A DNA stretch of 64,000 nt from NCBI GenBank assembly GCA_963829855.1, contig CAWHKE010000009.1, positions 4,202 through 68,201 on the forward strand, read 5' to 3'. This DNA comes from an uncultured Actinomycetota bacterium. Lineage in GTDB: Bacteria > Actinomycetota > Actinomycetes > Propionibacteriales > Nocardioidaceae. How positions within the stretch are numbered: position 1 is the first letter of the stretch; each line of letters starts with the position of its first letter. Made by a program: the position numbers and the translations under genes. Below the pieces are notes generated by a model. It was given only the letters and a program-made list of their open reading frames with translations. It was not told the origin of the DNA and made no database searches. Below are positions 8,255 to 56,881 of the stretch, one piece after another.

Positions 8255-8265
8255 AGGGACTTGCT

Positions 8266-9549: not shown

Positions 9550-9587
9550 CCCTTCAGCAGCGAGACATGCTCGGACGGTCCCGGGGT

Positions 9588-28504: not shown

Positions 28505-28512
28505 CCTGACCG

Positions 28513-30399
<1,887 letters not shown>

Positions 30400-30534
30400 G
30401 GTGTGCTGCGACCGCTTTCGTGGGGAGGCTGGGGACCGACGGATCAGTCTACGGAGCCGCCGTCGTCCGCCGCGATTCGTCGCGCCTAGGCTGTCCGCCA
30501 TGCTGCTGGCCGTCCCGACCGTCCCCGACCGCGC

Positions 30535-31416
30535 ATGACCCTGATCGCGGCCGCCGACGGGTCCGCCCTCGGCAACCCCGGTCCGAGCGGGTGGGCGTGG
30601 TACGTCGACGACGACTGCTGGGCCAGCGGGGGCTGGGCGCACGGCACCAACAACATGGGTGAGCTCACCGCGGTGCTGGACCTGCTCCAGCAGACCGCCG
30701 GCGTCGACGAGGAGCTGCACGTCTTCTGCGACTCGACGTACGCCATCAACGCGATCACGAAGTGGATGGCCGGCTGGAAGCGGCGCGGCTGGAAGAAGGG
30801 CGACGGCAAGCCGGTCGCCAACGTCGAGATCATGAAGGCGCTCGACGAGGCGATGCAGGGTCGGCGCGTGGTCTTCGAGTGGGTCAAGGGGCACGCCGGC
30901 CACGTGCTGAACGAGAAGGCCGACGAGCTGGCGAACGCGGCCGCGCGGGCGTTCCAGGAGGGGTCGGCGCCGGACCCCGGACCCGGCTTCCACGGCGACC
31001 GGTCCTCGCACGCGTTCAGCGTCACGGTGGCTCCGGAGCCCGACCCCGACCTGTTCTCGCTGGCCGAGGAGGCGGTGGAGTCCGACGAGGAGCTCGTCGT
31101 ACGGCTGGAGCGGGCGCTGCTGACCGACGAGGTGCGCGGCGACCCGGCCGCGGTGGCCGCGCTGCTGCACCCCGCGTGGGAGGAGGTCGGCCGCTCGGGC
31201 CGGCGCTGGTCACGCGAGGAGGTGCTGGCGTCGATCGGGCCGCTGGACGAGCGGGTCGGGCTCGAGGTGCTCTCGGTCGATCGGGTGGGCGACGCGCTGC
31301 TCCTGCTGTGGCGCGCGGTCCGGGCCGGTGGGGACGCCACCGTGCGCAGCTCGCTGTGGGTGCGCGAGGGCGAGCGCTGGCTGCAGCGCTTCCACCAGGG
31401 CACCCCCGAGGCCTGA
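30535..31416 (+). CDS. rnhA: Ribonuclease HI fused to a C-terminal DUF4440/SnoaL-like domain
   Basis: The N-terminal domain has AADGSALGNPGPSGWAWY..NNMGELTAVL..FCDSTYAINAITKW..WVKGHAGHVLNEKADELA, i.e. the DEDD residues. The C-terminal 110 aa or so read LERALLTDEVRGDPAAVAALLHPAWEEVGRSGRRWSREEV...WVREGERWLQRFHQGTP. Confidence 0.85.
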   Translation: MTLIAAADGSALGNPGPSGWAWYVDDDCWASGGWAHGTNNMGELTAVLDLLQQTAGVDEELHVFCDSTYAINAITKWMAGWKRRGWKKGDGKPVANVEIMKALDEAMQGRRVVFEWVKGHAGHVLNEKADELANAAARAFQEGSAPDPGPGFHGDRSSHAFSVTVAPEPDPDLFSLAEEAVESDEELVVRLERALLTDEVRGDPAAVAALLHPAWEEVGRSGRRWSREEVLASIGPLDERVGLEVLSVDRVGDALLLLWRAVRAGGDATVRSSLWVREGERWLQRFHQGTPEA

Positions 31417-31418
31417 CG

Positions 31419-31574
31419 CGCGAGTCGTGGGTAAATCGGCCCGAGTCGTGAGGAAATTGGCCCGAGTCGTGAGGAAATCGAGTCGAGTGGTGAACTCATT
31501 CGTTCGGGCCTGCGATTTCGTCACGAATGGACCGGATTCAGTCACGACTCGCGCCGAATCAGGCACGACTCGCG
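31419..31574. repeat. Array of 21-bp repeats: 4 forward units (CGAGTCGTG at 31421, 31442, 31463; degenerate unit at 31484) facing 3 inverted units (degenerate CACGAATGG at 31522; CACGACTCG at 31543 and 31564)
   Basis: I read this directly from the sequence. The period is exactly 21 nt on both arms. The array fills the whole 159-nt gap between the rnhA stop (31416) and the racemase stop (31576). The outermost units pair as an imperfect long hairpin. Confidence 0.85.
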
Positions 31575-31575
31575 G

Positions 31576-32265
31576 TCAGGCGAGGGCGCGGTCGAGGGCC
31601 GCGTTGACGTGCAGCGTCGTGCAGGGGTACGCCGGGACGTCGAGGTCGGACTGCCGGATCAGCAGCTCGAGCTCGGTGCAGCCGACGAGGATCCCCTGGG
31701 CGCCGTCGTCCCAGAGCTCGTCGATGATCTCGACCACGCGGCGGCGGGTCCGGTCCAGGACGTGGCCGTGCACCAGCTCGTCGTAGATCGCGGAGTTGAG
31801 GTAGTCGTGGTGGTCGGCCGTGGGGACGACGACCTCGACTCCTTGGTCGGCCATCCGGTCGATGAAGAACCGGTCCGACATCGCCACCGCGGTCCCGATG
31901 AAGCCGACCTTGGTCGACTCGGCGGCCCGGACGGCGTCGGCGACCACGTCGGCGAGGTGGAGCAGCGGGATGTCGACCGCCGCCGCAACCTGGTCGGCCA
32001 CCTTGTGGAACGTCGTCGTGCAGAGCAGCAGGAAGTCCGCGCCCGCCCGCTCGACGCCCTGCGCGGCCTCGCCGAGGAGCTGCCCGATCCGGTCCCACCG
32101 TTCGGCGTCCTCGAGGGCGGTGAGCTCCGCGAAGTCGACCGTGCTGAGGACCAGCTTCGGCGACGAGAGACCACCCAGCCGCTCCTGCATGCCGACGTTG
32201 AGGTCGCGGTAGTAGACGAGGCTGGACTCCCAGCTCATGCCTCCGACGAGTCCGATGGTCTGCAC
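31576..32265 (-). CDS. Aspartate/glutamate racemase family protein
   Basis: VQTIGLVGGMSWESSLVYYR...LLLCTTTFH...ILVGCTELELL carries the two catalytic Cys motifs. The start is set at the GTG at 32265. Confidence 0.85.
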   Translation of the reverse strand: MQTIGLVGGMSWESSLVYYRDLNVGMQERLGGLSSPKLVLSTVDFAELTALEDAERWDRIGQLLGEAAQGVERAGADFLLLCTTTFHKVADQVAAAVDIPLLHLADVVADAVRAAESTKVGFIGTAVAMSDRFFIDRMADQGVEVVVPTADHHDYLNSAIYDELVHGHVLDRTRRRVVEIIDELWDDGAQGILVGCTELELLIRQSDLDVPAYPCTTLHVNAALDRALA

Positions 32266-32288
32266 GGGTGGCAGTCTGCCACCCGGCG

Positions 32289-33320
32289 TCAGGGCTTGCG
32301 GCCGCGTACCACCCGAGCGAAGGGCAGCTCGACGAACTCGACGTCGATGAAACCGGTGCGCTCCAGCTCCGACTGCAGGTCCTCGGCGCTCCGGTCCGGG
32401 ATCCCCCACGCGCCGTGCAGCAGGGCGTCCAGGGCGTAGTCGCGGCCGTCGACCGTGCGGAGCTCCGCCACGTCGGCCACGGGCTCCTGCAGCAACGGCG
32501 CCCGCACCATGCCGCCGCTGCGGAGCGAGCTGAACAACACCTGCAGTGCAGCCTCGCGGGCACCCTCGGGAAAGAAGAACTGGCTCCAGAAGGCGAAGTC
32601 GAACGAGTCGGGACGCGAGAACGTCGTGGCGTCGCCGAGCACGATCTCCATCCGGTCCTCGAGGCCCAGTCGGTGGGAGCGCTCCCGCGCCACGTCCGCC
32701 AGCTCCTCGCTGAGCTCGACGCCCACCCCGCGCACGTTCGGGTAGAGCTGCAGGATCGTGCTCATCCCGCCGGCGACCCCGCACCCCAGCTCCAGGTAGC
32801 TGCCGCCTCGCTCGAGCAAGGGGGTGAGCACGTCGTCGGTCGCGATCGCCCGGGCCAGCAGCTCGAGCGTCCCGGGCGACTCCGGGTCGAGGGAGACGCC
32901 CACGGCGTAGGCGGTGCGGTCATCGGCGGTCGTCGTCCAGTAGTCCGCGAGCCCGTCGACGGCGTCCTCGACCATCCGGCTACGCGCCTCCCGGAACCGC
33001 AGGACGCGCAGCAGGTCCGTGGGAGGGTCCGGCAGCAGCAACGGCCGCCAGCGCTCGGTCACGACGAACCGACCGTCGTCGAGGTCGAGCACGTCGTACG
33101 CCGTGAGCGCGGTCAGGACTCGGCGGACGCGGTCCACGGGGCGCTCGAGACTGGCGGCCAGCTCCTCCGCGGTCGCGGGCTCGGCCGCAGCCTGGACCAG
33201 CCCGAGCCGCCAGGCGCCACGGACGAGCGCGAGCGCCTCGTGGCCGGCGAAGGTGCCCGACACCTCGCGCAGCGCCTGCATGTACGCGAGGCTCGGCCCC
33301 GCCTCGGCTTCCTCGGGCAT
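32289..33320 (-). CDS. Class I SAM-dependent methyltransferase with an N-terminal winged-helix-like domain
   Basis: YLELGCGVAGGMSTIL (motif I) and the ...GVELSEELADVARER spacing are present. The N-terminus resembles an O-methyltransferase dimerisation/HTH domain. The start is the internal ATG at 33320. Confidence 0.8.
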   Translation of the reverse strand: MPEEAEAGPSLAYMQALREVSGTFAGHEALALVRGAWRLGLVQAAAEPATAEELAASLERPVDRVRRVLTALTAYDVLDLDDGRFVVTERWRPLLLPDPPTDLLRVLRFREARSRMVEDAVDGLADYWTTTADDRTAYAVGVSLDPESPGTLELLARAIATDDVLTPLLERGGSYLELGCGVAGGMSTILQLYPNVRGVGVELSEELADVARERSHRLGLEDRMEIVLGDATTFSRPDSFDFAFWSQFFFPEGAREAALQVLFSSLRSGGMVRAPLLQEPVADVAELRTVDGRDYALDALLHGAWGIPDRSAEDLQSELERTGFIDVEFVELPFARVVRGRKP

Positions 33321-33331
33321 GGCGAGTCTCC

Positions 33332-34078
33332 TCAGTCGATGCGGTGGACCTTGTGCTGGGCGGCCTGGGCCCGGGGCCGGATCACCAGCTCGTCGATGTT
33401 GACGTGGGAGGGCCGGGTGGCGATCCACGAGATCGCATCGGCGACGTCCTCGGCGACCAGCGGGTCGGGGACACCGGCGTAGACGGCGTCGGCCTTGCTG
33501 GCGTCGCCCTCGAACCGGACCAGCGCGAACTCGTCGGTGCGGACCATGCCGGGCGCGATCTCCGAGATCCGGATCGGCTCCCCGTTGAGCTCGAGCCGCA
33601 ACGTCTCGGTCAGCACCTTCGTGCCGTGCTTGGCCGCCGTGTAGCCGCCGCCGCCCTCGTAGGCGACCCGGCCGGCGGTCGAGCCGACGTTGACGATCAG
33701 GCCGTCTCCGCTCGCGCGGAGGGCCGGCAGCAGCGCCTGGGTGACGTGGAGCGTGCCGAGGACGTTGACCTCGAACATCGCCCGCCACTGCTCGGGGTCG
33801 GCCGTCGCCACCGGATCTGCGCCGAACGCGCCGCCGGCGTTGTTGACCAGCACGTGCACCGGCTCGCCGACGGCGTCGGCGAGGGCAGCCACCGAGGTGG
33901 GGTCGGTCACGTCGCAGACCGCCGCCGTCCCACCGATCTCCGCCGCCAGCGGTTCGATCCGCTCAGAGCGGCGTGCGGCGCACCAGACGTGGAAGCCGTC
34001 GGCGGCGAGGGCGCGCGCGGTGGCGGCTCCGATGCCGCTGCTCGCACCGGTGACGACGGCCGTGCGGGGTACGCTCAT
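33332..34078 (-). CDS. SDR family oxidoreductase
   Basis: AVVTGASSGIGAATARAL, NNAG and the YTAAKHG catalytic YxxxK are present. Confidence 0.88.
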   Translation of the reverse strand: MSVPRTAVVTGASSGIGAATARALAADGFHVWCAARRSERIEPLAAEIGGTAAVCDVTDPTSVAALADAVGEPVHVLVNNAGGAFGADPVATADPEQWRAMFEVNVLGTLHVTQALLPALRASGDGLIVNVGSTAGRVAYEGGGGYTAAKHGTKVLTETLRLELNGEPIRISEIAPGMVRTDEFALVRFEGDASKADAVYAGVPDPLVAEDVADAISWIATRPSHVNIDELVIRPRAQAAQHKVHRID

Positions 34079-34133
34079 GGGCGCGATTCTGCCCTTTGGC
34101 ACAATCGGGCGTCCCACCCGACAGGAGTTGTGC

Positions 34134-34526
34134 ATGAGCCTGCGTGTCTTCGCGCTGGTGACGGGTCTGCTCGGTGGTGGCTGCTGGGTGGCACGGTGGG
34201 GGGCGGACCTGGCAGGCAGTGCACCGACGTGGTCCGACAGCGTCTACTGGGCCGGGCTGGGGTTGCTCGGCCTCGCCCTGGCCTGTGCCGGCAGTGGCCT
34301 GGTCAGCCGGAGCGCGCTCTGGTTGCGCCTGATCGTCGCGGTGGCGTTACCCCTGCTCGTCTGGTCGGTGTACGCCGTGGTGAAGGGCGACGACGACGCC
34401 CTGATGCTCGACGGCGTGCTCGGCGCGGTCGCCATCGTCGGGTCGCTGGCCCTCTTCGCGACCTCGGGCCGGCACGTCGACGGCTCGGAGCCGCCCCGGC
34501 GCGCCCCCGGCTCGCACGCCCGCTGA
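34134..34526 (+). CDS. Small integral membrane protein (4 predicted TM segments)
   Basis: MSLRVFALVTGLLGGGCWVARW...VYWAGLGLLGLALACAGSGLV...LRLIVAVALPLLVWSVYAVV...VLGAVAIVGSLALFA is present. ACAGGAG lies 7 nt upstream of the ATG. Confidence 0.6.
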   Translation: MSLRVFALVTGLLGGGCWVARWGADLAGSAPTWSDSVYWAGLGLLGLALACAGSGLVSRSALWLRLIVAVALPLLVWSVYAVVKGDDDALMLDGVLGAVAIVGSLALFATSGRHVDGSEPPRRAPGSHAR

Positions 34527-34562
34527 CCGGCCTGCCGCCGCCGTACCGACGGGCCGGACGGA

Positions 34563-35882
34563 ATGAACGACGGCCGGACGTCGTTATGGCTCTTCGGAGC
34601 ATCGGGTCGAGCGGCAGGAGACGGCGTGGACGGGCTGCAGCGGGTGGCGATGATCAGCCTGCACACCTCCCCGCTCGACCAGCCGGGCATCGGCGACGCC
34701 GGCGGCATGAACGTCTACGTGCTCGAGCTGTCGAAGCGGCTCGCCCGGCGGGGAATCGAGGTCGACATCTTCACGCGGGCGACGACCTCCGAGCTGCCGC
34801 AGGTGGCGCCCGCCGGTGACGGCGTCACGGTGCGTCACATCACGGCAGGTCCGTTCGAGGGCCTGACCAAGGGTGAGCTGCCGGGCCAGCTGTGCGTGTT
34901 CGCACGCGAGGTGCTGCGGGCGGAGGCCTCCCAGCCGCTCGGCCACTACGACGCCGTGCACAGCCACTACTGGCTGTCGGGCCAGGTCGGGGCGCTCGCC
35001 CGCGACCGGTGGGGCGTGCCGCTCGTCCACTCCATGCACACCATGGCCAAGGTCAAGAACGACGCCCTCGCCGACGGCGACACCCCGGAGCCCGAGGGGC
35101 GGATCATCGGCGAGGAGCAGGTGGTCGAGGCGGCCGACATGCTGGTCGCGAACACCGACCTCGAGGCCACCCAGCTGATCGAGCTGTACGGCGCCGACCC
35201 GGGCCGGGTGGAAGTGGTCCACCCCGGGGTCGACCTCGACGTGTTCCGGCCCCACGACCGGCGGGCGACCCGTCGCGAGCTCGGGCTGGCCGAGGACGCC
35301 CACGTGCTCCTGTTCGCCGGCCGGATCCAGCCCCTGAAGGCGCCCGACGTGCTGCTGCGCGCCGTCTCCGAGCTGCTGCGCCGCGATCCCGGCCTGCGCT
35401 CACGGCTGGTCGTCCCCGTGGTGGGCGGGCCGTCGGGGTCGGGGCTCGACCACCCCGAGTCGCTGGCCGAGCTCGCGGGGGAGCTCGGGCTCGACGGCGT
35501 CGTCCGGTTCGTGCCGCCGGTGACGCAGCCCGACCTGAGCCGCTGGTGCGCCGCGGCCGACCTGGTCGCGGTGCCGTCCTACAACGAGTCCTTCGGTCTG
35601 GTCGCCGTCGAGGCCCAGGCCTCGGGGACCCCGGTCGTCGCGGCGGCGGTCGGCGGGCTCACGACGGTGGTCCGCGACGAGGTCTCCGGTCTGCTGGTCG
35701 ACAGCCACGACGCGACGGCCTGGGCGGGCGCGCTGCAGCGGGTGATCGGCGACGAGGCGCTGCGCGACCGGCTCGCCGCCGGTGCCCTCGAGCACGCCCG
35801 TTCCTTCTCGTGGGAACGCACCGCGGACGCCACCCTGGACGTCTACCACCAGGCACGCGAGACCATGGCCGCGTGGGTGTGA
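34563..35882 (+). CDS. mshA: D-inositol-3-phosphate glycosyltransferase (mycothiol biosynthesis)
   Basis: [46 protein letters not shown] is present, plus the GT4 C-terminal motif [23 protein letters not shown]. The start may be later. Confidence 0.9.
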
Positions 35883-36379
35883 CGGATCCGACCAGCGCGG
35901 CCGCGGTGCTGCGGGAGTACCTCGCGGACGCCGGGCTCGATCACGAGGAGATCGCCGACGGCGTCTTCACGGTGACGATGCCGGGAGAGCGCAAGCTCCA
36001 GGTCCCGGTCCGGCTCGACGTCGGGCCGCACGCGCTCGGCGTGCACGCCTTCGTCTGCCGCCGGCCGGACGAGGACCACGAGGTGGTCTACCGGTGGCTG
36101 CTCCAGCGCAACCTGAAGATGTACGCCGTGGCGTTCGGGATCGATCCGCTCGGCGACATCTACCTCGACGCCCGGCTACCGCTCGCGATGATCAGCCCCG
36201 ACGAGATCGACCGGCTGCTCGGCTCGGTGCTGACCTACGCCGACGAGTCGTTCAACACGATCCTCGAGCTCGGCTTCGGGACCGCCATCCGCAAGGAGTG
36301 GGAGTGGCGCGTCTCGCGCGGCGAGTCGACCCGCAACCTGGACGCGTTCCGCGGCTGGCTCGGCGTCACGGACGAGTGA
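35879..36379 (+). CDS. YbjN domain-containing protein (Rv0487-like)
   Basis: The GTG overlaps the mshA stop (GTGTGA). The partnership downstream of mshA is conserved. The sequence includes [17 protein letters not shown]...[20 protein letters not shown]. Confidence 0.8.
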
Positions 36380-37289
36380 GGACCGGCGGCTCGTCACGGG
36401 CGGCCGCCGTCGGCCGGCGGCGCGCGACCGCGACGCCGACCAGCGCCAGCGCCCCTCCGACGTACGCCATGGCGGGCGGGGCCTCGTCGAGGAACACCAG
36501 CCCCATGACGATCGTGATGGGCGGGACCAGGTAGGTCGTCACGCCCAGGTTGCTGGCGCTCATGTGGCGCAGCGCGTAGGCGTACGTCGTGAAGGCGATC
36601 GCCGTCGGGAAGACGCCGAGGTAGACCAGCCACCACACCGAGGCGGCGGGCGCCTCCTGCAGCTCCGACCAGAGTGAGCCCGCGAACGGCAGGCACGCGA
36701 CCATGCCTACCGAGCAGGCGAGCCAGGTGACGTCGACGCCGCGGAGGCTGGCCACGAGCGGCTTCTGGAGGACCAGGCTCACGGCGTAGACGGCGGCTGC
36801 GAGCAGGCACAGTCCGACGCCGAGGACGTCGCGGTCGCCGCCGGGTGAGGTCGAGACCGCGATCAGCACGACGCCGCCGAACGCCAGCGCCAGCCCGATC
36901 ACGAGGAACCGGGTGAACTTCTCGTCCAGGAACAGGGCGGCCAGCACCGCGATCAGGATCGGCGACACCTGGATCAGCATGGCTGCGGTGCCGGCGTCGA
37001 CCCGCTGCTCGCCCTCGTTGAGGGCGACGTTGTAGACGCCGAACCACAGCACCCCGATCACCACGATCGAGCCCCACTGCCCTCGCGTGGGGCGGGGTAC
37101 GCCGCCTGCCAGCGCCACGACGCCGAGACAGAGCGAGCCGACGACGAGCCGGCCGAGCGAGAGCGGCCCGGGTGAGAACGAGTCACCCAGGTAGCGGATG
37201 GCCACGAACGCCGACGCCCAGAACACCAGTGTCGTCGCCACGGCCGCCAGCGGCAGCCAGCTGGGCGGGGTCCGCGTCAGGTCCTTCAC
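36366..37289 (-). CDS. DMT superfamily (EamA) transporter
   Basis: It has 10 TM segments and two EamA repeats (LVFWASAFVAIRYL..., VYLGVFPTAIAFTTYAYALRH). Confidence 0.85.
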   Translation of the reverse strand: MKDLTRTPPSWLPLAAVATTLVFWASAFVAIRYLGDSFSPGPLSLGRLVVGSLCLGVVALAGGVPRPTRGQWGSIVVIGVLWFGVYNVALNEGEQRVDAGTAAMLIQVSPILIAVLAALFLDEKFTRFLVIGLALAFGGVVLIAVSTSPGGDRDVLGVGLCLLAAAVYAVSLVLQKPLVASLRGVDVTWLACSVGMVACLPFAGSLWSELQEAPAASVWWLVYLGVFPTAIAFTTYAYALRHMSASNLGVTTYLVPPITIVMGLVFLDEAPPAMAYVGGALALVGVAVARRRPTAAARDEPPVLTRP

Positions 37290-37386
37290 CGGCTCAGCCT
37301 AGGAAGCCCGGCCCTCCCCGGTCGCGCGGTTTTCGGACGGCGCACGGCGACATCCCGCCAGTCGGCTCGGGTCGTGGACCCGTCCC

Positions 37387-38064
37387 TCACAGGTCCAGCT
37401 TGTAGCCCAGCCCGCGCACGGTGACGAGAAAGCGGGGCTCGGACGGGTTCGGCTCCAGCTTGGCGCGCAACCGCTTCACGTGGACGTCGAGGGTCTTGGT
37501 GTCACCGACGTAGTCGGAGCCCCACACCCGGTCGATCAGCTGGCCGCGGGTGAGCACGCGCCCCGCGTTCCGCAGGAACATCTCGAGCAGCTCGAACTCC
37601 TTGAGCGGGAGCCGCTGCTGCTCTCCGTTCACGGTCACCACGTGCCGCTCGACGTCCATCCGCACCGGGCCGGCCTCGAGCGCGGCGGGGGCGTGGTCGG
37701 GCTCGACGCCGCGGCGCAGCACGGCCCGGACCCGGGCGACCAGCTCGCGGGGCGAGTACGGCTTGGTGACGTAGTCGTCGGCGCCGAGCTCGAGCCCGAC
37801 CACCTTGTCGACCTCGTCGTCCTTCGCCGACACCATGATCACCGGCACGCTCGACGTGGCCCGGATCTGGCGGCACACCTCCGTGCCCGGGATGCCGGGG
37901 AGCATCAGGTCGAGCAGCACGATGTCGGCGCCGTTGCGCTCGAACTCGGTGAGCGCGTCGTGCCCGTTGGTCGCGATCGCGACCTCGAAGCCTTCCTTGC
38001 GCAGCATGTAGGAGAGCGCATCGCTGTAGCTCTCCTCGTCCTCGACGACGAGTACCCGGGTCAC
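37387..38064 (-). CDS. regX3: OmpR/PhoB-family response regulator (RegX3/PhoP type)
   Basis: VLVVEDEESYSDAL...DIVLLDLMLPGIPGTEVC...GADDYVTKPYSPRELVARV is present, with the winged-helix C-terminus TVRGLGYKL. A GTGA overlap links it to the kinase gene. Confidence 0.93.
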   Translation of the reverse strand: MTRVLVVEDEESYSDALSYMLRKEGFEVAIATNGHDALTEFERNGADIVLLDLMLPGIPGTEVCRQIRATSSVPVIMVSAKDDEVDKVVGLELGADDYVTKPYSPRELVARVRAVLRRGVEPDHAPAALEAGPVRMDVERHVVTVNGEQQRLPLKEFELLEMFLRNAGRVLTRGQLIDRVWGSDYVGDTKTLDVHVKRLRAKLEPNPSEPRFLVTVRGLGYKLDL

Positions 38065-39215
38065 CGGTCTGTCTCCTGCTTCCTGCGGGGCAGCGTGAGG
38101 GTGAACGTCGATCCTTGCCCTTCCACGGACCAGACGCTGATGTCGCCGCCGTGGGTGGCCGCGACGTGCTTGACGATCGAGAGGCCGAGGCCGGTGCCGC
38201 CGGTGGAGCGGTGCCGGGCCGGGTCGACCCGGTAGAACCGCTCGAAGATCCGGCCGACCTCGTGCTCGGGGATGCCGATGCCCTGGTCGACCACGGAGAT
38301 CTCCACGCTCTCGGGGAGCCCCTTGGTCGACACCAGCACGGTGGATCCCTCGCCGGAGTAGGCGATGGCGTTGGCGACCAGGTTCGCGACGGCGGCCGTG
38401 ATCTGCTCGGCGTTGCCCAGGACCTCCAGGTCGGACGTGCCGCCGCTGACGACCGAGATCCGCGCGGCGTCCGCGTCGATCGCGCTGGTGTCGACGGCGG
38501 TCTTGACGACCTCGTCGACCTGGACCGGCACGGGGGTGTCGATCGGGTCGTCGGCCTGCAGCCGCGACAGCTCGATGATCTGCTGGACGAGCCGGGTGAG
38601 CCGCTCGGACTCGGTGATCATCCGGCCGCTGAAGCGTTGCACGGCCTCCGGGTCCTCGGCCGCGTCGTGCACGGCCTCGGCGAGCAGCCTGATCGCGCCG
38701 ACCGGCGTCTTCAGCTCGTGGCTCACGTTGGCCACGAAGTCGCGCCGGACCGCCTCGATCTGCCGCTCCCGCGTCCGGTCCTCGACCAGCGCGAGCACGA
38801 GCCGGGAGCTGAGCGGGGCCACGCGGGCGGTGACGTGTCGAGGTGACAGGCCGTCGGGACGGCTCATGAGCAGCTCGGTCTCGCGGATGGTCCCGTCGCG
38901 GCGTACCTGCTCGACGAGGCCGGCCAGCTCGGTCGACACGAGGGCGTGGCCCTTGACCAGGCCGAGGGAGTACGCCGGTGCGCTGGCCTTGACCACGACG
39001 TCGTCCTCGCCGAGCACGACCGCGCTGCTGCGGAGCACCGAGAGCACGGTGGCGACGCCCGGTGGGAGGACGGGTTCCTCGACCGGCGGCGGCGTGCGCT
39101 GGAGCCGGTCGCTGAGGGCCCACGCGAAGACCGCGGCGGCGGCGACGCCCGCGCCGATCAGCGCGGCGAGCAGCGCCTGGGTCGTCCCGTCCACGCTCCC
39201 AGGGTACGCAGCCAT
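38061..39215 (-). CDS. senX3: Sensor histidine kinase (SenX3/PhoR type)
   Basis: The H-box FVANVSHELKTPVGAI, the N-box LVANAIAYS and the G-boxes DQGIGIP, GGTGLGLSIVKH are present. Confidence 0.9.
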   Translation of the reverse strand: MAAYPGSVDGTTQALLAALIGAGVAAAAVFAWALSDRLQRTPPPVEEPVLPPGVATVLSVLRSSAVVLGEDDVVVKASAPAYSLGLVKGHALVSTELAGLVEQVRRDGTIRETELLMSRPDGLSPRHVTARVAPLSSRLVLALVEDRTRERQIEAVRRDFVANVSHELKTPVGAIRLLAEAVHDAAEDPEAVQRFSGRMITESERLTRLVQQIIELSRLQADDPIDTPVPVQVDEVVKTAVDTSAIDADAARISVVSGGTSDLEVLGNAEQITAAVANLVANAIAYSGEGSTVLVSTKGLPESVEISVVDQGIGIPEHEVGRIFERFYRVDPARHRSTGGTGLGLSIVKHVAATHGGDISVWSVEGQGSTFTLTLPRRKQETDR

Positions 39216-39254
39216 TCACCGGCGATTTCGACGGCGGACGGACCGCCGTCGACT

Positions 39255-39279
39255 GTTCACCATGCGTTCACGCGTTCAC
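39255..39279. promoter_or_regulatory. PHO-box-like direct repeats (GTTCAC x3) in the senX3/phoU divergent region
   Basis: GTTCAC occurs at 39255, 39266 and 39274 (spacing 11 and 8 nt), and aTTCACC at 39214. They match the GTTCACC core of actinobacterial PhoP/RegX3 direct-repeat units. Confidence 0.45.
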
Positions 39280-39315
39280 CCCGTCCCGTCACCTGCCCTG
39301 CCTAGGGTGTCGGTC

Positions 39316-39966
39316 ATGCGTGAGGCTTTCCATGACCAGCTCGACTCCGTGTTCGAGGATCTCGCCGGCATCTGCCGCAGCGTCGAGACCGCGGTGGCGC
39401 TCGCGAGCCAGGCGCTCCTCGAGGGCGACGCCCAGGTGGCCGAGCGGGTCATCAGCTCCGACGCCGACATCGACGCGGCCCGCGAGCAGGTCGAGGACAC
39501 CTGCTTCACGCTGCTCTCGCTGCAGCAGCCGGTCGCGGGCGACCTCCGGGTCGTCGTGTCGGCGCTGAGGATGGTGAGCGAGCTCGAGCGGATGGGCGAC
39601 CTCTCGGTGCACGTCGCGAAGATCGCCCGGCTGCGGGTGCCCGGCATGGCCGTGCCCGACCAGGTCCGGCCGACGATGTCCCAGATGGCCGAGGTCGCCC
39701 GCGACATGGTCGCCCGCGTCTCGCAGATCATCACCACCAAGGACGTCGAGGCCGCGATCGCGCTCGGCCGCGACGACGAGGTGATGGACCGGCTGCGCCG
39801 GCAGAGCTTCCGCGAGCTGCTGTCCGACGACTGGGCTCACGGAGTCGAGGCGGCCGTCGACCTGGCACTGCTCGGGCGCTACTACGAGCGGATCGCCGAC
39901 CACGCCGTGTCGGTCGCCAACCGGATCGTCTTCGTCGTCACCGGCCAGCAGCCCGTCGACGCCTGA
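39316..39966 (+). CDS. phoU: Phosphate signalling complex protein PhoU
   Basis: It has two PhoU repeats, including the typical ...LRMVSELERMGDLSVHVAKIA... and ...LGRYYERIADHAVSVANRI. Confidence 0.93.
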   Translation: MREAFHDQLDSVFEDLAGICRSVETAVALASQALLEGDAQVAERVISSDADIDAAREQVEDTCFTLLSLQQPVAGDLRVVVSALRMVSELERMGDLSVHVAKIARLRVPGMAVPDQVRPTMSQMAEVARDMVARVSQIITTKDVEAAIALGRDDEVMDRLRRQSFRELLSDDWAHGVEAAVDLALLGRYYERIADHAVSVANRIVFVVTGQQPVDA

Positions 39967-39986
39967 CCGACCGGTCGTCGCGCGGC

Positions 39987-41054
39987 TCAGCGGCGGAGCA
40001 GCAGCGCCGAGTCGCCGAACTCGTGCCAGAGATAGCCCTCGGCCGTCGCTGCGTCGTACGCCGCCTGCGTCAGCCCGGCACCGGCGACGGCCTCGACGAG
40101 CAGCAGGTGCGAGGCCCCCGGGTCGTGCCATCCGGTGACCAGCCCGTCGACCACCTGCGGCGGGTCCGCCGGCGTCACGACCCGCTCGGTCCAGCCCCGG
40201 CGCGCGACGACCCGCTCGCCGTCGACGGCCGACTCGAGGGCGCGCGTCACGGTGGTCCCGACCGCCACGACCCGCCCGCCGGCCGCGCGGGTGGCGGTGG
40301 CCAGGCGCGCGGTCGCGGCCGGCACGTCGTACCACTCCGGCTGCGGCGCCTCGCCCGCCTCCTGCGACGAGAAGCCGGTGTGCAGCGTGATGGGGGCGAC
40401 GCCGACCCCACGCGCCACGAGCCGGGTGACGACCTCGTGCGTGAACGGTCGGCCGGCCGACGGCATCTCGGCGCTGCCGGGCTCGGTGCCGAAGACCGAC
40501 TGGTAGGCCGACAGCGGGAACCGACCGTCGAGGTAGCCGTAGCTGATCGGCCGGCCGTCACGGCGCAGCGCGCCGACGAGGTCACCGTCGACCCGGGCCC
40601 GCCACAGCCGGTTGCCCGTCCCGGTCGGGGAGGAGTCGGCCGCCGGGTACGGCGCCACGAGCGTCAGCGTGAACGCGGCGGTGCCGACCCGGTCGCCCGG
40701 AGCCGCGTCGAGCACGGCCCGGGCCGCGTCCGGGGCGGTGCGGAGCTCGACGACCCGGCAGAGGTCGTCGAGCCGGGACCCGACGTGCACGACCACCCTC
40801 GTGCCCGAGCCGGTGCGCTCCCACCGGGCGTCGAGCTGACCGGCGACCGTCGCCGAGTTGTTGACGACCAGGAGGTCGCCGGGGCGCAGGTGGTCGGGCA
40901 GGTCGGCGAACCGCGCGTGGCGGATCCCGGCCGGGTCGCCGACCAGCAGCCGGACGTCGTCCCGCCCGAGCCCCCGCGCCTCGGCCGGCGACGCCGCGAA
41001 GGCGGTGGCCGGCGCCGTGAACGTCGTCGTGGGGCGCAGCGTCAGCGTCGTCAC
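39987..41054 (-). CDS. queA: S-adenosylmethionine:tRNA ribosyltransferase-isomerase
   Basis: It is collinear with E. coli QueA: DLLVVNNSATV (DLLVFNNTRV), YQSVFGTEPGSAEMPSAGRPF ([21 protein letters not shown]), VAVGTTVTRALES (IAVGTTSVRSLES). The GTG start overlaps the upstream SDR stop (GTGA). Confidence 0.88.
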   Translation of the reverse strand: MTTLTLRPTTTFTAPATAFAASPAEARGLGRDDVRLLVGDPAGIRHARFADLPDHLRPGDLLVVNNSATVAGQLDARWERTGSGTRVVVHVGSRLDDLCRVVELRTAPDAARAVLDAAPGDRVGTAAFTLTLVAPYPAADSSPTGTGNRLWRARVDGDLVGALRRDGRPISYGYLDGRFPLSAYQSVFGTEPGSAEMPSAGRPFTHEVVTRLVARGVGVAPITLHTGFSSQEAGEAPQPEWYDVPAATARLATATRAAGGRVVAVGTTVTRALESAVDGERVVARRGWTERVVTPADPPQVVDGLVTGWHDPGASHLLLVEAVAGAGLTQAAYDAATAEGYLWHEFGDSALLLRR

Positions 41055-41800
41055 GCGAGCACCTCCGCGCGCGCGACCTCGACGTCGGCGGCCCGGTAGC
41101 GGCCCGTCGGTGGGCGTTGCTCGACGAGCGCCAGCAGGCGTGGCGCGACCGTGTCCGGCAGCGGGCGGTCGGAGATGTCCTCGCCCGGGAACGCGTCCTG
41201 GTGCATGCGGGTCCGCATGTCGCCGGGGTCCACGGCGTACGTCCGGAGCCCGGTCTCCGCGCCGAAGGTCTGCACCAGGTGGTCGAGCGCGGCCTTGGCG
41301 GCGCCGTAGGGACCCCAGGTCTCGTAGTGCTCGACCGCCGCGTCGGAGGAGATCCCCACCACCACCCCGCCGCGCGCCAGCAACGGCTCGACGAGCTCGA
41401 TCATCAGCGCGGCGTTCGCGCCCGCGGTGCCCCGGATCGTCTCGCCGAGCTCGGTGGCCGAGAGGTCGCGCAGCGGTCGCAGGGGTAGCGGACCCAGGGT
41501 GCTCGCGTTCAGGACGAGGAGGTCGAGACCACCAGCCGCCTCGACCTCACTCAGGAGAGCGGCGCGGTGGGTCGCGTCGGCGACGTCGCCGACGATCGCC
41601 CGGGCCCGCTCCCGGTACCGCAGCTCCCTCAGGTTCTCGTGCAGCCGCTCGGCGTTCCGCGCGTCGGTCACGACCGTCCAGCCTCGCTCGGTCAGGGCAC
41701 GGACGAGCTCGAGCCCGAGCCCCTCCGAGCCCCCTGTCACGAGGGCGACGGGCGTGCGGGAGGGGGTGTCTGGGTTGAGTTCGTTCGTCATGCCTGCCAT
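41051..41800 (-). CDS. SDR family oxidoreductase, predicted SoxR target
   Basis: VALVTGGSEGLGLEL and YGAAKAALDH are present. The alternative start at 41791 (MTNELNP...) fits a leaderless transcript from the SoxR-box promoter. Confidence 0.88.
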   Translation of the reverse strand: MAGMTNELNPDTPSRTPVALVTGGSEGLGLELVRALTERGWTVVTDARNAERLHENLRELRYRERARAIVGDVADATHRAALLSEVEAAGGLDLLVLNASTLGPLPLRPLRDLSATELGETIRGTAGANAALMIELVEPLLARGGVVVGISSDAAVEHYETWGPYGAAKAALDHLVQTFGAETGLRTYAVDPGDMRTRMHQDAFPGEDISDRPLPDTVAPRLLALVEQRPPTGRYRAADVEVARAEVLA

Positions 41801-41829
41801 TGTTCAAGTTCAAGTTAACTTGAGTTCAA
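41799..41829 (-). promoter_or_regulatory. SoxR-box promoter: TTGAAC, 19 nt, AACAAT, enclosing the palindrome TCAAGTTAACTTGA (41810-41823)
   Basis: The minus strand reads TTGAAC-tcaagttaacttgaacttg-AACAAT-ggcaggc-ATG. The 14-bp perfect palindrome matches the core of the E. coli soxS operator CCTCAAGTTAACTTGAGG. The 19-nt spacer is the MerR-family hallmark. It lies in the 38-bp gap between the SDR gene and soxR. Confidence 0.7.
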
Positions 41830-41838
41830 GGAGACGCC

Positions 41839-42312
41839 GTGGAGAAGCACGACCTGCTGTCGATGGGGGAGGTCGTCGAGCGCAGTGGCTTCGCGGCCTC
41901 GGCGCTCCGCTACTACGAGGCCGAGGGCCTGGTGCACGCCACCAGGTCACCGGGCGGGCGGAGGATGTTCGAGCGGAGCGCGTTGCGGAGGCTGGCGTTC
42001 ATCAGGGCGGCCGCGAACGTCGGGCTGACGCTGCACGAGATCCGCGATGAGCTCGACCGGCTCCCGGAGGGACGCACCCCTACCAAGGCCGACTGGAGCC
42101 GGATCAGCCGCCACTGGCGCGGCCGGCTGGACGAGCAGATCGCAGCGCTGGAGCAGCTGCGCGACGGGCTCGACTCGTGCATCGGCTGCGGCTGCCTGTC
42201 ACTGCAACGGTGCTGGATCTACAACCCGGACGACGTGCTGGCGGCCGACGACCGCGCCCCCGGGGCGGCCCGGCTGCCGCGGCTGCTGCGCCGTCCACAC
42301 CCCACCCGCTGA
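41839..42312 (+). CDS. soxR: Redox-sensitive MerR-family transcriptional activator SoxR
   Basis: The MerR HTH LSMGEVVERSGFAASALRYYEAEGL and the [2Fe-2S] motif CIGCGCLSLQRC are present. Confidence 0.92.
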   Translation: MEKHDLLSMGEVVERSGFAASALRYYEAEGLVHATRSPGGRRMFERSALRRLAFIRAAANVGLTLHEIRDELDRLPEGRTPTKADWSRISRHWRGRLDEQIAALEQLRDGLDSCIGCGCLSLQRCWIYNPDDVLAADDRAPGAARLPRLLRRPHPTR

Positions 42313-42315
42313 GCG

Positions 42316-42378
42316 CGAGTCGTGCCTGATTCGGACCGAGTCGTGGCCTGATTCGGACCGAGTCGTGGCGAATGCCGG
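42316..42378. repeat. Three tandem forward copies of the 21/22-bp repeat (CGAGTCGTG at 42316, 42337, 42359)
   Basis: cgagtcgtgcctgattcggac / cgagtcgtggcctgattcggac / cgagtcgtggcgaatgccgg. The array fills the 66-nt gap between the soxR stop (42312) and the gpmA stop (42379). Confidence 0.85.
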
Positions 42379-43122
42379 TCAGCGGCCCTGGTTGGCGACG
42401 GCGGCAGCGGCCGCGGCGGCCGCCTCGGGGTCGAGGTACTCGCCGCCGGCGACGGTCGGCGCGAACGCCGCGTCGAGGCGGTACACGAGCGGCATCCCGG
42501 TCGGGATGTTGAGGCCCGCGATGTCGGCATCACTGATGCCGTCGAGGTGCTTCACGATGCCGCGCAGGCTGTTGCCGTGGGCGGCCACGAGCACCGTCAG
42601 GCCGGCCTCGAGGTCGGGCACGACCGCCGACTCCCAGTAGGGAAGCATCCGCGCGATCACGTCCTTGAGGCACTCCGTGCGCGGCAGGTCGTCGCCGAGA
42701 TCGGCGTAGCGCGGGTCTCCGGCCTGCGACCACTCGTCGTCGTCGGGCAGCGGCGGGGGCGGGACGTCGAACGAGCGACGCCACGTCATGAACTGCTCCT
42801 CGCCGTACTCCGCGAGCGTCTGCTTCTTGTCCTTGCCCTGCAGCGCGCCGTAGTGACGCTCGTTGAGGCGCCACGAACGACGGACCGGGATCCAGTGCCG
42901 GTCGGCGGCGTCCAGGGACAGGTGGGCCGTGGTGATGGCGCGCCGCTGGAGCGAGGTGTGGACGACGTCGGGCAGCAGCCCGGCCGCGCGCAGCTGCTCG
43001 CCGCCGCTGACGGCCTCCGCCCGGCCCTTCTCGGTCAGGTCGACGTCGACCCAGCCGGTGAAGAGGTTCTTCGCGTTCCACTCGCTCTCGCCGTGCCGGA
43101 GCAGGATCAGCGTGTGCGTCAT
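42379..43122 (-). CDS. gpmA: 2,3-bisphosphoglycerate-dependent phosphoglycerate mutase
   Basis: [33 protein letters not shown] and [15 protein letters not shown] are present. The start is the internal ATG at 43122, overlapping the upstream stop (TGATG). Confidence 0.95.
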
Positions 43123-43646
43123 CAGTGCTCGCCCACGGGCTCGGCGACCTCGCACTCGCCACCCGTGCCGTCGAGGCCCTCGAACTCCTCGCAGTTGGCG
43201 ACCACGGGCACCGTCATCTCGACAACCTGTCCACCGGAGAGCTGGAACGTGATCGGCATCGAGGCGCCGGCCCCGAACTCACCCTCGACGGCGACGCCCT
43301 CCTCGCCCTCGGCCCCGAGGTAGACGAGGCCGCCCGGGGCGACCGTGATGGGCGAGAAGTCGGGGATCTGGGCCGTCTCGACCCCGGGCGTCATGGCCTC
43401 GACCGTGGCGTCCTCGGCGACGTCGTTGTTGACGAACGTCGCGATGAACGTGCCCGATCCCTCCTCGGCCGACACGATCGCCGCGCCGAGCACGTCGACC
43501 GAGGCGTCGCGGTTGTTGGCGCCGGCGGCCGGGGTGTACTCCCGCTCGGTGGCCTTGTCGAAACCGCACGAGGACAGCGGCACCGCCAGCAGCAGCGCAC
43601 CTGCCGCCAGCGCCCAGGAGCGTCGGGTCTTCTGCATGGCTCGCAT
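43122..43646 (-). CDS. Lipoprotein of unknown function
   Basis: It has a signal peptide with the lipobox [11 protein letters not shown] and an acidic C-terminus with [14 protein letters not shown]. Confidence 0.7.
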
Positions 43647-43667
43647 GCTAGCGGTCCGGGTCGGCGC

Positions 43668-44462
43668 TCACTGGCGGAGGCCGACCTGCGATCCCGCGGC
43701 CAGGAGGCCGGCCAGGACCAAGGTCGTCACCGCGATCGTGGACCAGAGCGCCTTGGCGGCACCGATCCGCAGGCCGAGCCGCATCGGGAGGTGGCGGACG
43801 CCGTGCTCGTGGTCGCGGACCAGGCCAGGGAGCGACACCAGGACGTGGACACAGACCCCGAGGAGTGCCGCCAGGACGGTGACGCTGATCTCCGGCGGGG
43901 TGGTGCGGCCGTCGCCGGCCCATCCGCCGTACGCCAGGAACGCCGGGTACAGCGCGTACGCCGCAGCCCAGGGAAGCCACGAGAGCCACCCGCGCCTCAA
44001 GACCAGGTTGCCGACGAGGCCGATCGCCACCGACGCGAGGTAGGCCACCCCGCTCCACACCCCGTGCGAGACCGCGAGCGGCACGAGCAGCAGCCCGGCG
44101 CACGCGATGGCGAAACCGACGTCGCCGGCGGCCAGCCAGCCCTGCGCGACGGGCTTGTCCTGCCGCTCGTCCTCCGCGTCGCGGTGCCGGTCGACGAGGT
44201 CGTTGTGCCAGCCCAGGATCGCCTGCCCCACGAGCACCGTGACCAGCACGACCCCGACCTCGCGAGTGGTCCGCCCGCTGAGGGCGGCCGCGCCGGCGAG
44301 GGCCACCGCGCTGACCAGGCCGAGCCGGGGGTGCGAGGCCTGCAGGAGCAGGACCGGAGTCCATCTGCGCCACCCGGAGAGGCCGCGGGCACGCCGGCCC
44401 ACGGAACCGTCGACGGCGCGGCTGTCCGAGCGGCTGCGGGCCATGCCCGCAGTATCGACCAC
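43668..44462 (-). CDS. UbiA-family prenyltransferase-like membrane protein
   Basis: It is polytopic with an Asp-rich motif [16 protein letters not shown] (NDxxDxxxD type). Confidence 0.7.
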
Positions 44463-44643
44463 CCGCGCGCGAGGGTCACGGAGGTCGGCGAAGCCGAGAC
44501 CCGATCGAGGCGTCCGGAGAGCGGCGCCACCACACGAAGTGGCGATCTGTCAAGCCCTCAATGCCGCCCTGACCTGCACAAACGCGTCGGGAGCACAACC
44601 GGGGCCGTGTTACGATAGTCACCTGGAAAGGGGTACTTCACAT

Positions 44644-45129
44644 ATGAGTTTCACCGTCGGCGAAACGGTTGTCTATCCGAATCACGGAGCCGCAGTCATC
44701 GAGGACATCGAGATGCGGAAGATCAAGGGGGAGGACCGGCAGTACCTCGTTCTGAGGATCGTCGCGCAGCAGGACCTGGTCGTCCGGGTCCCCGCGTGCA
44801 ACCTCGATCTCGTGGGTGTCCGGGACGTCGTCGACAAGGAGGGCCTCGACCGCGTGTTCGACGTCCTCCGTGCCGCGCACGTCGAGGAGCCGACCAACTG
44901 GTCGCGCCGCTACAAGGCCAACCTCGAGAAGCTCCACAGCGGCGACGTCATGAAGGTCTCGGAGGTCGTCCGCGACCTGTGGCGCCGCGAGCGCGATCGT
45001 GGCCTGTCGGCCGGCGAGAAGCGGATGCTCGCCAAGGCCCGGCAGATCCTGGTCTCCGAGCTGGCGCTGGCCGAGCACACCAACGAGGACAAGGCCGAGG
45101 CCATCCTCGACGAGGTGCTGGCTTCCTGA
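44644..45129 (+). CDS. carD: CarD/CdnL family RNA polymerase-binding transcription factor
   Basis: [38 protein letters not shown]...[17 protein letters not shown] is present. GAAAGGGG lies upstream of the ATG. Confidence 0.95.
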
Positions 45130-45160
45130 GCCTGGCTCACGCACCGCACTGAACCATCCA

Positions 45161-45194
45161 CGACGTGCCCCGGTCCTCGGACCGGGGCACGTCG
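45161..45194 (+). terminator. Hairpin after carD (15-bp perfect stem, 4-nt loop)
   Basis: CGACGTGCCCCGGTC-ctcg-GACCGGGGCACGTCG begins 32 nt after the carD stop. Confidence 0.7.
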
Positions 45195-45215
45195 CGTTCG
45201 GCCGGCTCCCCGCCG

Positions 45216-45293
45216 CGAGTCGTGCCCGATGCGAGACGAGTCGTGCCTGATTCCGGAACGAGCCACGACTCGACCGGATTCAGGCACGACTCG
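45216..45293. repeat. Same repeat family: 2 forward units (45216, 45237) facing 2 inverted units (CACGACTCG at 45264, 45285)
   Basis: cgagtcgtgcctgattccgg (45237-45256) and ccggattcaggcacgactcg (45274-45293) are reverse complements except for one base. The period is 21 nt on each arm. Confidence 0.85.
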
Positions 45294-45366
45294 CGCCCAC
45301 GGGCCGTCACATCCCCGAAACACCGTGCGGCGTCGCGCGAAACGTGGCGCGCCTAGCGTCCGCTGG

Positions 45367-45726
45367 GTGACCTCGGACGCCGCCCAGGACCAGACAGGGT
45401 TCCTGCCGGTGTGCCGGGTCGAGGAGCTCGAGGTCGAACGGGGGGCGGCCGCGTTGGTCCACGGCCAGGCAGTCGCATTGTTCAGAACCGCCGACGACCA
45501 GGTGCACGCCGTGAGCAACCACGACCCGTTCGAGCACACGAGCGGGCTCGCCAGGGGGATCGTCGGACGCCGCGGGGACGTGCAGTTCGTCGCGTCCCCG
45601 CGGCACGGTCACGCCTTCGACCTCGCCACCGGCCGCTGCCTCGACGACGCGGCCGTCGCCGTCTCCGTGTACGACGTGCGGGTGACCGACGGCGTGGTCG
45701 AGGTCGGCCATCGGCGGCACGCGTGA
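45367..45726 (+). CDS. nirD: Nitrite reductase small subunit NirD-like (Rieske-fold without cluster ligands), stand-alone
   Basis: PVCRVEELEVERGAAALVHGQAVALFRTADDQVHAVSNHDPF...GIVGRRGDVQFVASP...FDLATGRCLDD...VYDVRVTDGVVEV is present. No nirB lies in the window. The GTG start is provisional. Confidence 0.75.
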   Translation: MTSDAAQDQTGFLPVCRVEELEVERGAAALVHGQAVALFRTADDQVHAVSNHDPFEHTSGLARGIVGRRGDVQFVASPRHGHAFDLATGRCLDDAAVAVSVYDVRVTDGVVEVGHRRHA

Positions 45727-45739
45727 GCCCGCTCGCGGA

Positions 45740-46228
45740 TCAGCCGTGCAGCAGGGCGGTCGCGATCGCCGCGATGCCCTCGCCGCGGCCGGTGAGCCCG
45801 AGCCCGTCGGTGGTCGTGGCCGACACCGAGACCGGCGCACCGACCGCCTGACCGAGCGCTGCCTCGGCCTCGGCGCGGCGAGGCCCGAGCCGGGGCCGGT
45901 CGCCGATGACCTGCACCGCGACGTTCCCGATCTCGTAGCCGGCCTCGCGGACCCGGCGCGCGGTCTCGGTCAGCAGGGCGACCCCCGACGCCCCGGCCCA
46001 GCGCGGCTCCGAGGTGCCGAAGTTGCTGCCCAGGTCGCCGAGCCCCGCCGCCGAGAGCAGCGCGTCGCAGGCGGCGTGCGCGGCGACGTCGGCGTCCGAG
46101 TGACCCTCGAGCCCCTGCGGCTCCTCCGGCCAGCTGAGGCCGGCGAGGTGCAGCGGTGCGCCGTCGACGAGCCGGTGGACGTCGGTGCCGATCCCGATGC
46201 GGACGGGAGGGTGAGGGTCGTGCTGCAC
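45740..46228 (-). CDS. ispF: 2-C-methyl-D-erythritol 2,4-cyclodiphosphate synthase
   Basis: [11 protein letters not shown]...[26 protein letters not shown]...[21 protein letters not shown] is present. The start is set at the GTG at 46228; the track start (46267) would overlap the divergent gene. Confidence 0.9.
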
Positions 46229-46259
46229 GTGCTGATCATGCCTGAGGGACAATGACGCC

Positions 46260-56850: not shown

Positions 56851-56881
56851 GCCGCCCAACCTAGAGGCGTCCGCCGACAGA

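Follow-up and report, generated by a model that had tools for sequence, protein, structure and literature searches.

Phased Arrays of 21- to 22-Nucleotide Repeats, Built of Independent Polar Arms, Form a Repeat Family at Gene 3′ Ends in Actinomycetota

In the window, the whole 64-kb stretch of DNA that was analysed, a gene with RNase H and DUF4440 domains (30535–31416, plus strand) converges on a gene of the Asp/Glu racemase family (31576–32265, minus strand). Because these genes end at 31416 and 31576, the 159-nt gap between them (31417–31575) is occupied from end to end by a repeat array, termed array 1. Its forward arm (31421–31504, plus strand) comprises four 21-nt units that start at 31421, 31442, 31463, and 31484, the fourth being degenerate (CGAGTGGTG). 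Its inverted arm (31510–31572, minus strand) comprises three 21-nt units, at 31552–31572, 31531–31551, and 31510–31530, the last of which is also degenerate and reads CCATTCGTG on the minus strand. Between the arms, flanked by the two degenerate innermost units, lies a 5-nt centre, CGGGC (31505–31509), that is read directly from the sequence. The units share a 9-mer, CGAGTCGTG, which is exact at 31421, 31442, and 31463; its inverted form, CACGACTCG, occupies 31543–31551 and 31564–31572, and a degenerate inverted form, CACGAATGG, occupies 31522–31530. Tandem Repeats Finder assigns to 31421–31480 a period of 21 with 2.9 copies, 89% matches, and a score of 99, and the inverted arms at 31419–31480 and 31513–31574, 62 nt each, are 76% complementary. 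The end of the TGA stop of the RNase H gene is 4 nt from the first copy of the 9-mer, hereafter the core, and the stop of the racemase gene is 3 nt from the outermost inverted core. An earlier note had described this gap as filled by four forward and three inverted repeats of period 21, with a 19-mer recurring elsewhere, and the description is right in all details, coordinates included.

The 19-mer in question, CGAGTCGTGCCTGATTCGG, recurs exactly at 42316–42334 and with one extra base at 45237–45256, and these positions lie within two further arrays. Array 2 (42316–42378, plus strand) has one arm only, with three units of 21, 22, and 20 nt, and is flanked by the stop of a MerR/SoxR-like gene (41839–42312, plus strand) on one side and by that of a His_Phos_1 phosphoglycerate-mutase-like gene (42379–43122, minus strand) on the other. 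Array 3 (45216–45293) consists of two forward units (45216 and 45237) and two inverted ones (cores 45264–45272 and 45285–45293) about an 18-nt centre; a terminator-like hairpin belonging to carD lies on one side of it and a Rieske_2 gene (45367–45726) on the other. The hairpin, which is G+C rich, follows carD (44644–45129) at 45161–45194 on the plus strand, upstream of array 3, and is part of the context and not of the repeat. A different hairpin sequence takes its place in L127 and L130 (at about 2020–2060), two other contigs whose CarD protein is identical.

The density of arrays is thus three per 64 kb of the window. Exact copies of the 9-mer number 13 in the window, where 2.8 are expected; 0 of 100 shuffles reached this count, and 12 of the 13 copies fall inside the three arrays. 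The thirteenth, at 61116, is within a coding region and looks like a chance occurrence. The window has 12 convergent gene junctions, two of which hold arrays; in eight of the ten array-free junctions the gap is only −14 to +13 nt. Abutting or overlapping convergent genes are seen, for example, at 17877/17885, 25033/25037, 28504/28513, and 58472/58481. No U-tract and no terminator-like site was detected anywhere in the 17 kb from 30000 to 47000, where the arrays end directly at stop codons.

The wider distribution of the repeat was assessed by scanning species-representative genomes (one per species) for two exact cores 12–13 nt apart, which returned at least 107 stretches. Many of the isolated matches in unrelated phyla are coding repeats or chance. 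Multi-unit arrays with the same 9-mer, phase, and layout are present at many loci in at least four actinobacterial lineages from at least two orders, among the matches listed. The carriers are soil Actinomycetota metagenome-assembled genomes (MAGs) near the window's organism, Nocardioides, Prauserella (P. flavalba, P. cavernicola, and P. endophytica), and Pseudonocardia. One locus in a related soil MAG, L043, is 92.7% identical to the window over the syntenic region, and the nucleotide identity of the window's organism to the MAG OY970374.1 is about 92.7%.

In all four lineages the 9-mer is the best-conserved block and forms the head of the unit, and the next 12–13 nt are lineage-specific. This body reads CCTGATTCGGNC or GGTAAATCGGCC in the window's lineage, CGTTCGGGACCG or CACTCAGGACCG in Prauserella, GTTTCGGCGCGCG in Pseudonocardia, and ACTTGTGACGCG in Nocardioides. 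Cores follow one another in steps of 22 nt in Pseudonocardia and of 21 nt in the other three lineages. Among neighbouring cores on the same strand, 73 of 80 pairs keep this step in the window's lineage, as do 85 of 87 in Prauserella and 28 of 32 in Pseudonocardia. The suggestion that the repeat belongs to a family is therefore borne out by its many loci in relatives and in other lineages, and a local duplication is not the source. Three further organisms, represented by a single array locus each among the matches listed, are candidate members of the family: the haloarchaeon Natronomonas sp. LN261, with the 9-mer in a 22-nt array of at least eight units (L041, 523–685), and Nonomuraea (L079, 6219–6311) and Streptomyces sp. 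NPDC050546 (L024, 616–666), with the 9-mer in 21-nt arrays. In Streptomyces the core reads CGWGTCGTG, and the array follows immediately on a TGA.

The earlier note did not recognise the sequence, and the catalogues bear this out. At the gathering threshold, Rfam has no match to the repeat either in the window or at eight loci from other lineages; over 31300–31700 there is none even at E values up to 10. BLAST finds no match to the array in plasmids and phages, and the searchable literature holds nothing relevant to the repeat, the literal 9-mer matching only primers. As far as checked, the family is uncatalogued, and it occupies the same genomic places as the REP elements of E. coli with a different build.

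Several other identities were considered and rejected. A scan of viral contigs produced six matches, all of them unrelated coding or chance repeats. A restriction or methylation target is not indicated, as CGAGTCG occurs outside the arrays at chance frequency (52 found, 50 expected). A coding repeat might seem compatible with a period that is a multiple of three in three lineages, but the period is 22 nt in Pseudonocardia, and one frame contains stops. CRISPR arrays have direct repeats of 23–55 nt with unique spacers of about the same length between them, whereas here the period is only 21 nt, the “spacers” of 12 nt are similar to each other (identity 0.50–0.73), and the arms are inverted. Toxin–antitoxin RNA arrays, integron attC sites, and plasmid iterons are ruled out by layout and context, and the arrays lack the U-tract that defines the intrinsic terminator class.

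Position relative to gene ends, which the earlier note had proposed to tabulate, is strongly biased: the arrays lie at gene 3′ ends, and divergent junctions are rare. Gene calls are available to either side of 49 arrays, of which 28 are at convergent junctions (57%), 19 at tandem junctions (39%), and 2 at divergent junctions (4%). Background junctions of the same loci number 77, 259, and 85, respectively, and the arrays differ from them (p = 2.5e-9). The corresponding values for E. coli REPs are about 60%, 40%, and 1%.

The arms are also polar with respect to the genes they adjoin. Of 77 informative core-first arm edges, or heads, 50 have a co-directional stop codon no more than 25 nt away, as against only 4 of 36 tail edges; for 33 of the 50 the distance is 1–5 nt (mode 3 nt). 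The stop-adjacency figures are lower bounds, because gene-flank calling mislabelled several true stops as starts. Part of this closeness is due to the compactness of the genome, in which gaps are very small. At tandem junctions the array lies 1–11 nt from the upstream stop and leaves 20–120 nt before the next start, and in three cases (L058, L023, and L089) the stop codon lies inside the first unit. Among the 27 two-armed arrays, 25 have outward-facing heads and 2 inward-facing ones (p = 5.6e-6). Both inward-headed arrays (L025, 1748–1982, and L098, 3117–3223) come from Pseudonocardia sp. CA-107938, and each may represent two adjacent elements that have lost their outer arms.

Array 1 had been called symmetric. 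Inverted arms are present, but the array is better seen as two independent head-to-tail arms with their core ends facing the gene ends. Each arm in the family is a head-to-tail run, of up to 8–13 units. Unequal arm lengths are frequent (4 + 8, 5 + 3, 2 + 4), and pure single-arm arrays exist (at 42316 in the window, and in L016, L072, and L023/L114). At the centre, exactly 18 nt separate the innermost cores in 9 of 21 arrays of the window's lineage, so spaced that the innermost core pair makes an imperfect palindrome of 36 nt whose stem has the 9-mer at its base. Among the other centre lengths are 39 and 60 nt, which exceed 18 nt by one and two 21-nt units, respectively. Such a palindrome is probably the basic element or seed of the arrays; in the window's lineage it typically consists of a core, 18 nt, and an inverted core.

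Comparison of the variable parts of the units indicates how the arms are related. In the window's lineage their identity is 0.57 for units of the same arm, 0.50 for units of opposite arms in the same array, and likewise 0.50 for units of different arrays; the corresponding values in Prauserella are 0.73, 0.56, and 0.62, and there opposite-arm identity falls below the between-array background in 10 of 10 two-armed arrays. Opposite arms are thus no more alike than unrelated arrays, and the arms therefore expand independently of each other. There is no preference for long perfect palindromes, which may even be avoided. Core mismatches increase from head to centre, a trend that is partly due to how the head was defined.

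Relatives of the window's organism display these changes directly: arms grow, shrink, and swap unit types separately, and elements are gained and lost among close relatives. A related MAG (L029, 87.7% identity) has a clean empty site at the position of array 2, TGA-GGACGGTCGG-TCA, with 10 nt between the stops. On other contigs array 2 has three, four, or five units, and among source-metagenome contigs with an identical flanking protein the gap is 65, 86, or 107 nt, that of the window being 66 nt. Array 3 is found in four states on contigs with an identical CarD protein: there is none in L127 and L130, a solitary core with debris in L129 and L133, two forward and three inverted units in L134 and L135, and two forward and two inverted units in the window. 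The gap at array 1 is 138 or 159 nt in the source metagenomes, with differing mosaics of unit types. Among contigs whose flanking proteins are identical, the lengths thus change by one 21-nt unit at a time. Array 1 is kept in L043 and persists at that junction while its units change. Orthologous arrays with changed units are also seen across species (L054/L055/L056, L053/L058, and L051/L073).

The copy-number variation is drawn from metagenome assemblies, in which several contigs break at the array and repeat collapse may contribute. The same array alleles recur in independent samples, and the same layout is present in MAGs of megabase-scale contigs, one of them a complete chromosome (OY970374.1). 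Four contigs (L002, L003, L008, and L009) end at or inside array 1, next to the RNase H gene; judged by contig ends, the array is a practical breaker of short-read assemblies. Slipped-strand mispairing or unequal recombination between units would account for the changes in arm length. The arrays change faster than the surrounding genes and therefore offer a ready strain marker of the VNTR kind.

No direct repeat that would represent a target-site duplication was seen at filled and empty sites, which come from species only about 88% identical and have flanks of 3–10 nt. An all-against-all BLAST comparison of 477 ORFs from 55 loci revealed no transposase-like or recurring gene near the arrays, and candidates for a mobilising gene beside them were rejected, as only ordinary large families (ABC, SDR, GTPase) matched among these ORFs. 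Since neither a target-site duplication nor a transposase-like neighbour was seen, it is only from presence and absence that we infer mobility.

The arrays were also considered as folded transcripts. The whole gap of array 1 folds at −99.5 kcal/mol on the plus strand (z −7.5) and at −98 kcal/mol on the minus strand (z −10.7); array 3 gives z values of −6.2 and −7.1, and the array in L076 gives −9.9. The long imperfect hairpin that the earlier note had anticipated is indeed predicted, both strands of array 1 folding stably at about −99 kcal/mol. Single arms compared with shuffled sequences have a mean z of −1.71 in the sense orientation and −0.37 in the antisense orientation, and the sense strand folds better in 12 of 15 (Wilcoxon p = 0.015). 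Better folding of the sense strand is the outcome expected because of G-U pairs in a transcript, and the stem CCGAGUC/GAUUCGG of the window's lineage includes such a pair. The unit types that fold on themselves are type B of the window's lineage (z −5.6) and the GGG type of Prauserella (z −5.5); arms from Pseudonocardia, Nonomuraea, and others range from −1.3 to +0.9. Single arms of Pseudonocardia (L070 and L096) and Nonomuraea (L079) show no RNA structure relative to shuffles, and the RNA-structure effect is therefore not general.

The stability of these folds bears on the proposal that the arms exist in order to pair as one long hairpin, which would serve as a bidirectional terminator or mRNA stabiliser between convergent genes. 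Most arrays do lie between convergent genes, and E. coli REPs act as terminators and stabilisers. However, selection for a single hairpin would be hard to reconcile with the lack of co-evolution between opposite arms, whose variable parts match at or below background (all ten Prauserella arrays), or with arms that are often unequal or solitary. The U-tract is absent. Eight of the ten array-free convergent junctions in the window manage within −14 to +13 nt, without any hairpin, and the array is missing altogether from relatives and strains with identical flanking proteins. Nor does a hairpin alone account for the 25:2 bias in orientation. The hairpin as a selected terminator is thus weakened, and this explanation of the arrays appears improbable.

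Comparison with known repeats points more clearly to the REP and BIME elements of Enterobacteriaceae and Pseudomonas. Like these, the arrays are short, high-copy, and strictly extragenic, and combine a conserved head with a lineage-specific body. Their junction distribution is nearly equal to that of REPs, including the location at 3′ ends that marks the class, and both form clusters of variable units whose locations differ between strains and which end up in 3′ UTRs. Inverted partners tend to be of unlike subtypes, as they are in REP dimers (PMC3733652). The build is different. The units of a BIME alternate in orientation. REP clusters are inverted, whereas the arms here run head to tail (F F F R R R), strictly in phase at 21 or 22 nt. 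As REPs form head-to-tail dimers rarely or not at all (PMC3733652), the layout here departs from theirs. A REP carries a GTAG or CGTC tag at one end (PMC3733652), whereas the head here is CGAGTCGTG. Each REP unit is itself an imperfect palindrome of 20–40 bp; here the palindrome forms between units of opposite arms. Finally, REPs are accompanied by a gene for a RAYT (a Y1 transposase), which they flank, and none was found among the 477 ORFs next to the arrays.

A second likeness drawn by the earlier note was to MIRUs. These have units of about 46–101 bp, occur as direct repeats only, and lie mainly within operons. MIRUs resemble the arrays in being actinobacterial, intergenic, and tandem, in abutting the upstream stop codon, and in having a strain-variable copy number (VNTR), as arrays 1 and 2 do. 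By description they are set apart by the 21–22-nt units, usually two inverted arms, and mostly convergent junctions found here. The two analogies thus proved apt for genomic position (57/39/4% against about 60/40/1%) and for VNTR-like copy number, but not for the way in which the arrays are built.

Other systems share fewer or different features. MITEs and foldback transposons resemble the arrays in their inverted arms of variable tandem subrepeats, presence or absence at orthologous sites, and constant arm polarity (25:2 here). Unlike them, the arrays have no boundary of terminal repeats other than the core, they include single-arm copies, and two arms of the same copy resemble each other no more than arms from separate copies do; a target-site duplication was not visible at the filled and empty sites of the diverged species compared. 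A simple foldback-transposon model does not predict pure single-arm arrays. Terminators without a U-tract in high-G+C Actinobacteria, and the TRIT sequences of M. tuberculosis, are G+C-rich hairpins at 3′ ends, often between convergent genes. With these the arrays share a G+C-rich hairpin without a U-tract at 3′ ends and a conserved, recurring sequence; they differ (from TRIT, by description) in that the array is not a single hairpin, complementarity of the arms is not kept, and relatives dispense with it. Iteron and partition-site arrays and the Sal-box arrays of eukaryotic rDNA bind one protein cooperatively, the Sal boxes in a polar arrangement at gene ends. These too have short conserved motifs head to tail, about two helical turns apart, whereas the arrays studied here have no adjacent rep, par, or terminator-factor gene and occupy many scattered chromosomal sites.

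The arrays are most readily understood as a REP/BIME-like family of interspersed extragenic repeats of Actinomycetota, a reading to which a probability of roughly 0.55 may be given. Its unit is the 9-mer head CGAGTCGTG with a lineage-specific body of 12–13 nt, and the element would lodge in permissive gaps at gene 3′ ends. An element so placed would be transcribed as part of a 3′ UTR in the sense orientation. By analogy with E. coli REPs, its structure there would probably impede 3′ exonucleases or read-through. Elements of the REP type have been studied in detail in Proteobacteria, and the REP survey lists no Actinobacteria (PMC3733652), whereas the hosts here are Actinomycetota. Since cultured Nocardioides, Prauserella, and Pseudonocardia carry the family as well as soil MAGs, experiments are possible; P. 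flavalba YIM 121212 and N. hankookensis CCUG 54522 are among the cultured carriers.

The conserved head and strict phase point to a putative recognition factor. The 9-mer and its spacing are plausibly conserved through recognition by a trans-acting protein, which would be a mobilising enzyme or else a DNA- or RNA-binding factor of the host. The more specific proposal, that CGAGTCGTG is the recognition site of a conserved protein, be it a mobilising enzyme unrelated to RAYT or a DNA- or RNA-binding factor forming a polar barrier, is tentative and rather doubtful as it stands. If it is a mobilising enzyme, the arrays would be the first REP-type system of Actinomycetota. If it is a binding factor, the protein would be lined up head to tail along each arm, a polar barrier where terminator-less genes abut. 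The arrays do sit where convergent genes would otherwise adjoin without a terminator, and they could show how high-G+C bacteria define 3′ ends.

The 21-bp phase had led to the suggestion that protein binds the arrays on one face of the helix. The sequences are consistent with this, and it may be the most interesting reading still standing. In its full form it regards the array as phased double-stranded DNA in which the 9-mer is bound head to tail on one helix face, with candidate roles as a polar barrier to RNA polymerase, an insulator of abutting convergent genes, or a recruiter of topoisomerase. The spacing of two helical turns is strict although the bodies have diverged, and changes of length within the body are compensated in the window's lineage (GATTCGG + AC versus GAATCCGG + T). 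The 9-mer is kept across orders while the rest varies, the core includes the near-palindrome CGANTCG, and head units are the best conserved, an observation biased by the definition of the head. However, no candidate protein accompanies these features, CGAGTCG is neither enriched nor depleted outside the arrays, and close relatives dispense with arrays entirely. The bias toward folding of the sense strand favours RNA over duplex DNA, and regular spacing also arises from tandem duplication alone. A DNA-binding array is thus an unlikely explanation of the family, as poorly favoured as the terminator.

A third explanation places the function in the sense-strand RNA. The repeated sequence CGAGUCGUG, read as a single strand in the 3′ UTR, would be the target of an RNA-binding protein or of a complementary small RNA; alternatively, as it begins about 3 nt past the stop codon, it would act on the ribosome during termination. 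Liang, Rudd, and Deutscher are said to have found in 2015 that E. coli REPs within about 15 nt of a stop codon stall ribosomes. The position of heads 1–5 nt after stops, even at roomy tandem junctions, suggests such a role, as do the sense orientation of stop-adjoining single arms and the three first units that contain the stop. Yet the closeness to stops is explained in large part by very small gaps and by the requirement that the ribosome-binding site downstream be left intact, arrays with two arms occur also where only one gene ends, and there is no known RNA or protein partner. This role therefore seems very unlikely. A chance local duplication without a wider family can be dismissed, since no point favours it and 13 exact cores against 2.8 expected, more than 100 loci, at least, in other genomes, and the orthologous array in the related MAG L043 speak against it.

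Between the typA stop and the convergent gene the window has a gap of 8 nt (28505–28512), and L043 holds 2.3 kb there (3788–6088), including an ORF weakly similar to Peptidase_M10 and a gene for an MFS transporter. As this example illustrates, convergent junctions are also sites of gene gain or loss. Elsewhere in the window, the stretch 4000–10200 has a G+C content of 0.61–0.66, against 0.70–0.74 on both sides. It encodes a 1244-residue fusion of a GT2 glycosyltransferase with Methyltransf_24 (4520–8254, plus strand) and a UDP-glucose/GDP-mannose dehydrogenase (8266–9549, plus strand). This stretch, with its glycosyltransferase and sugar dehydrogenase genes and no mobility genes, is probably an acquired surface-polysaccharide island. 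A tRNA gene at 56881–56953 on the minus strand is the sole Rfam match in the window.
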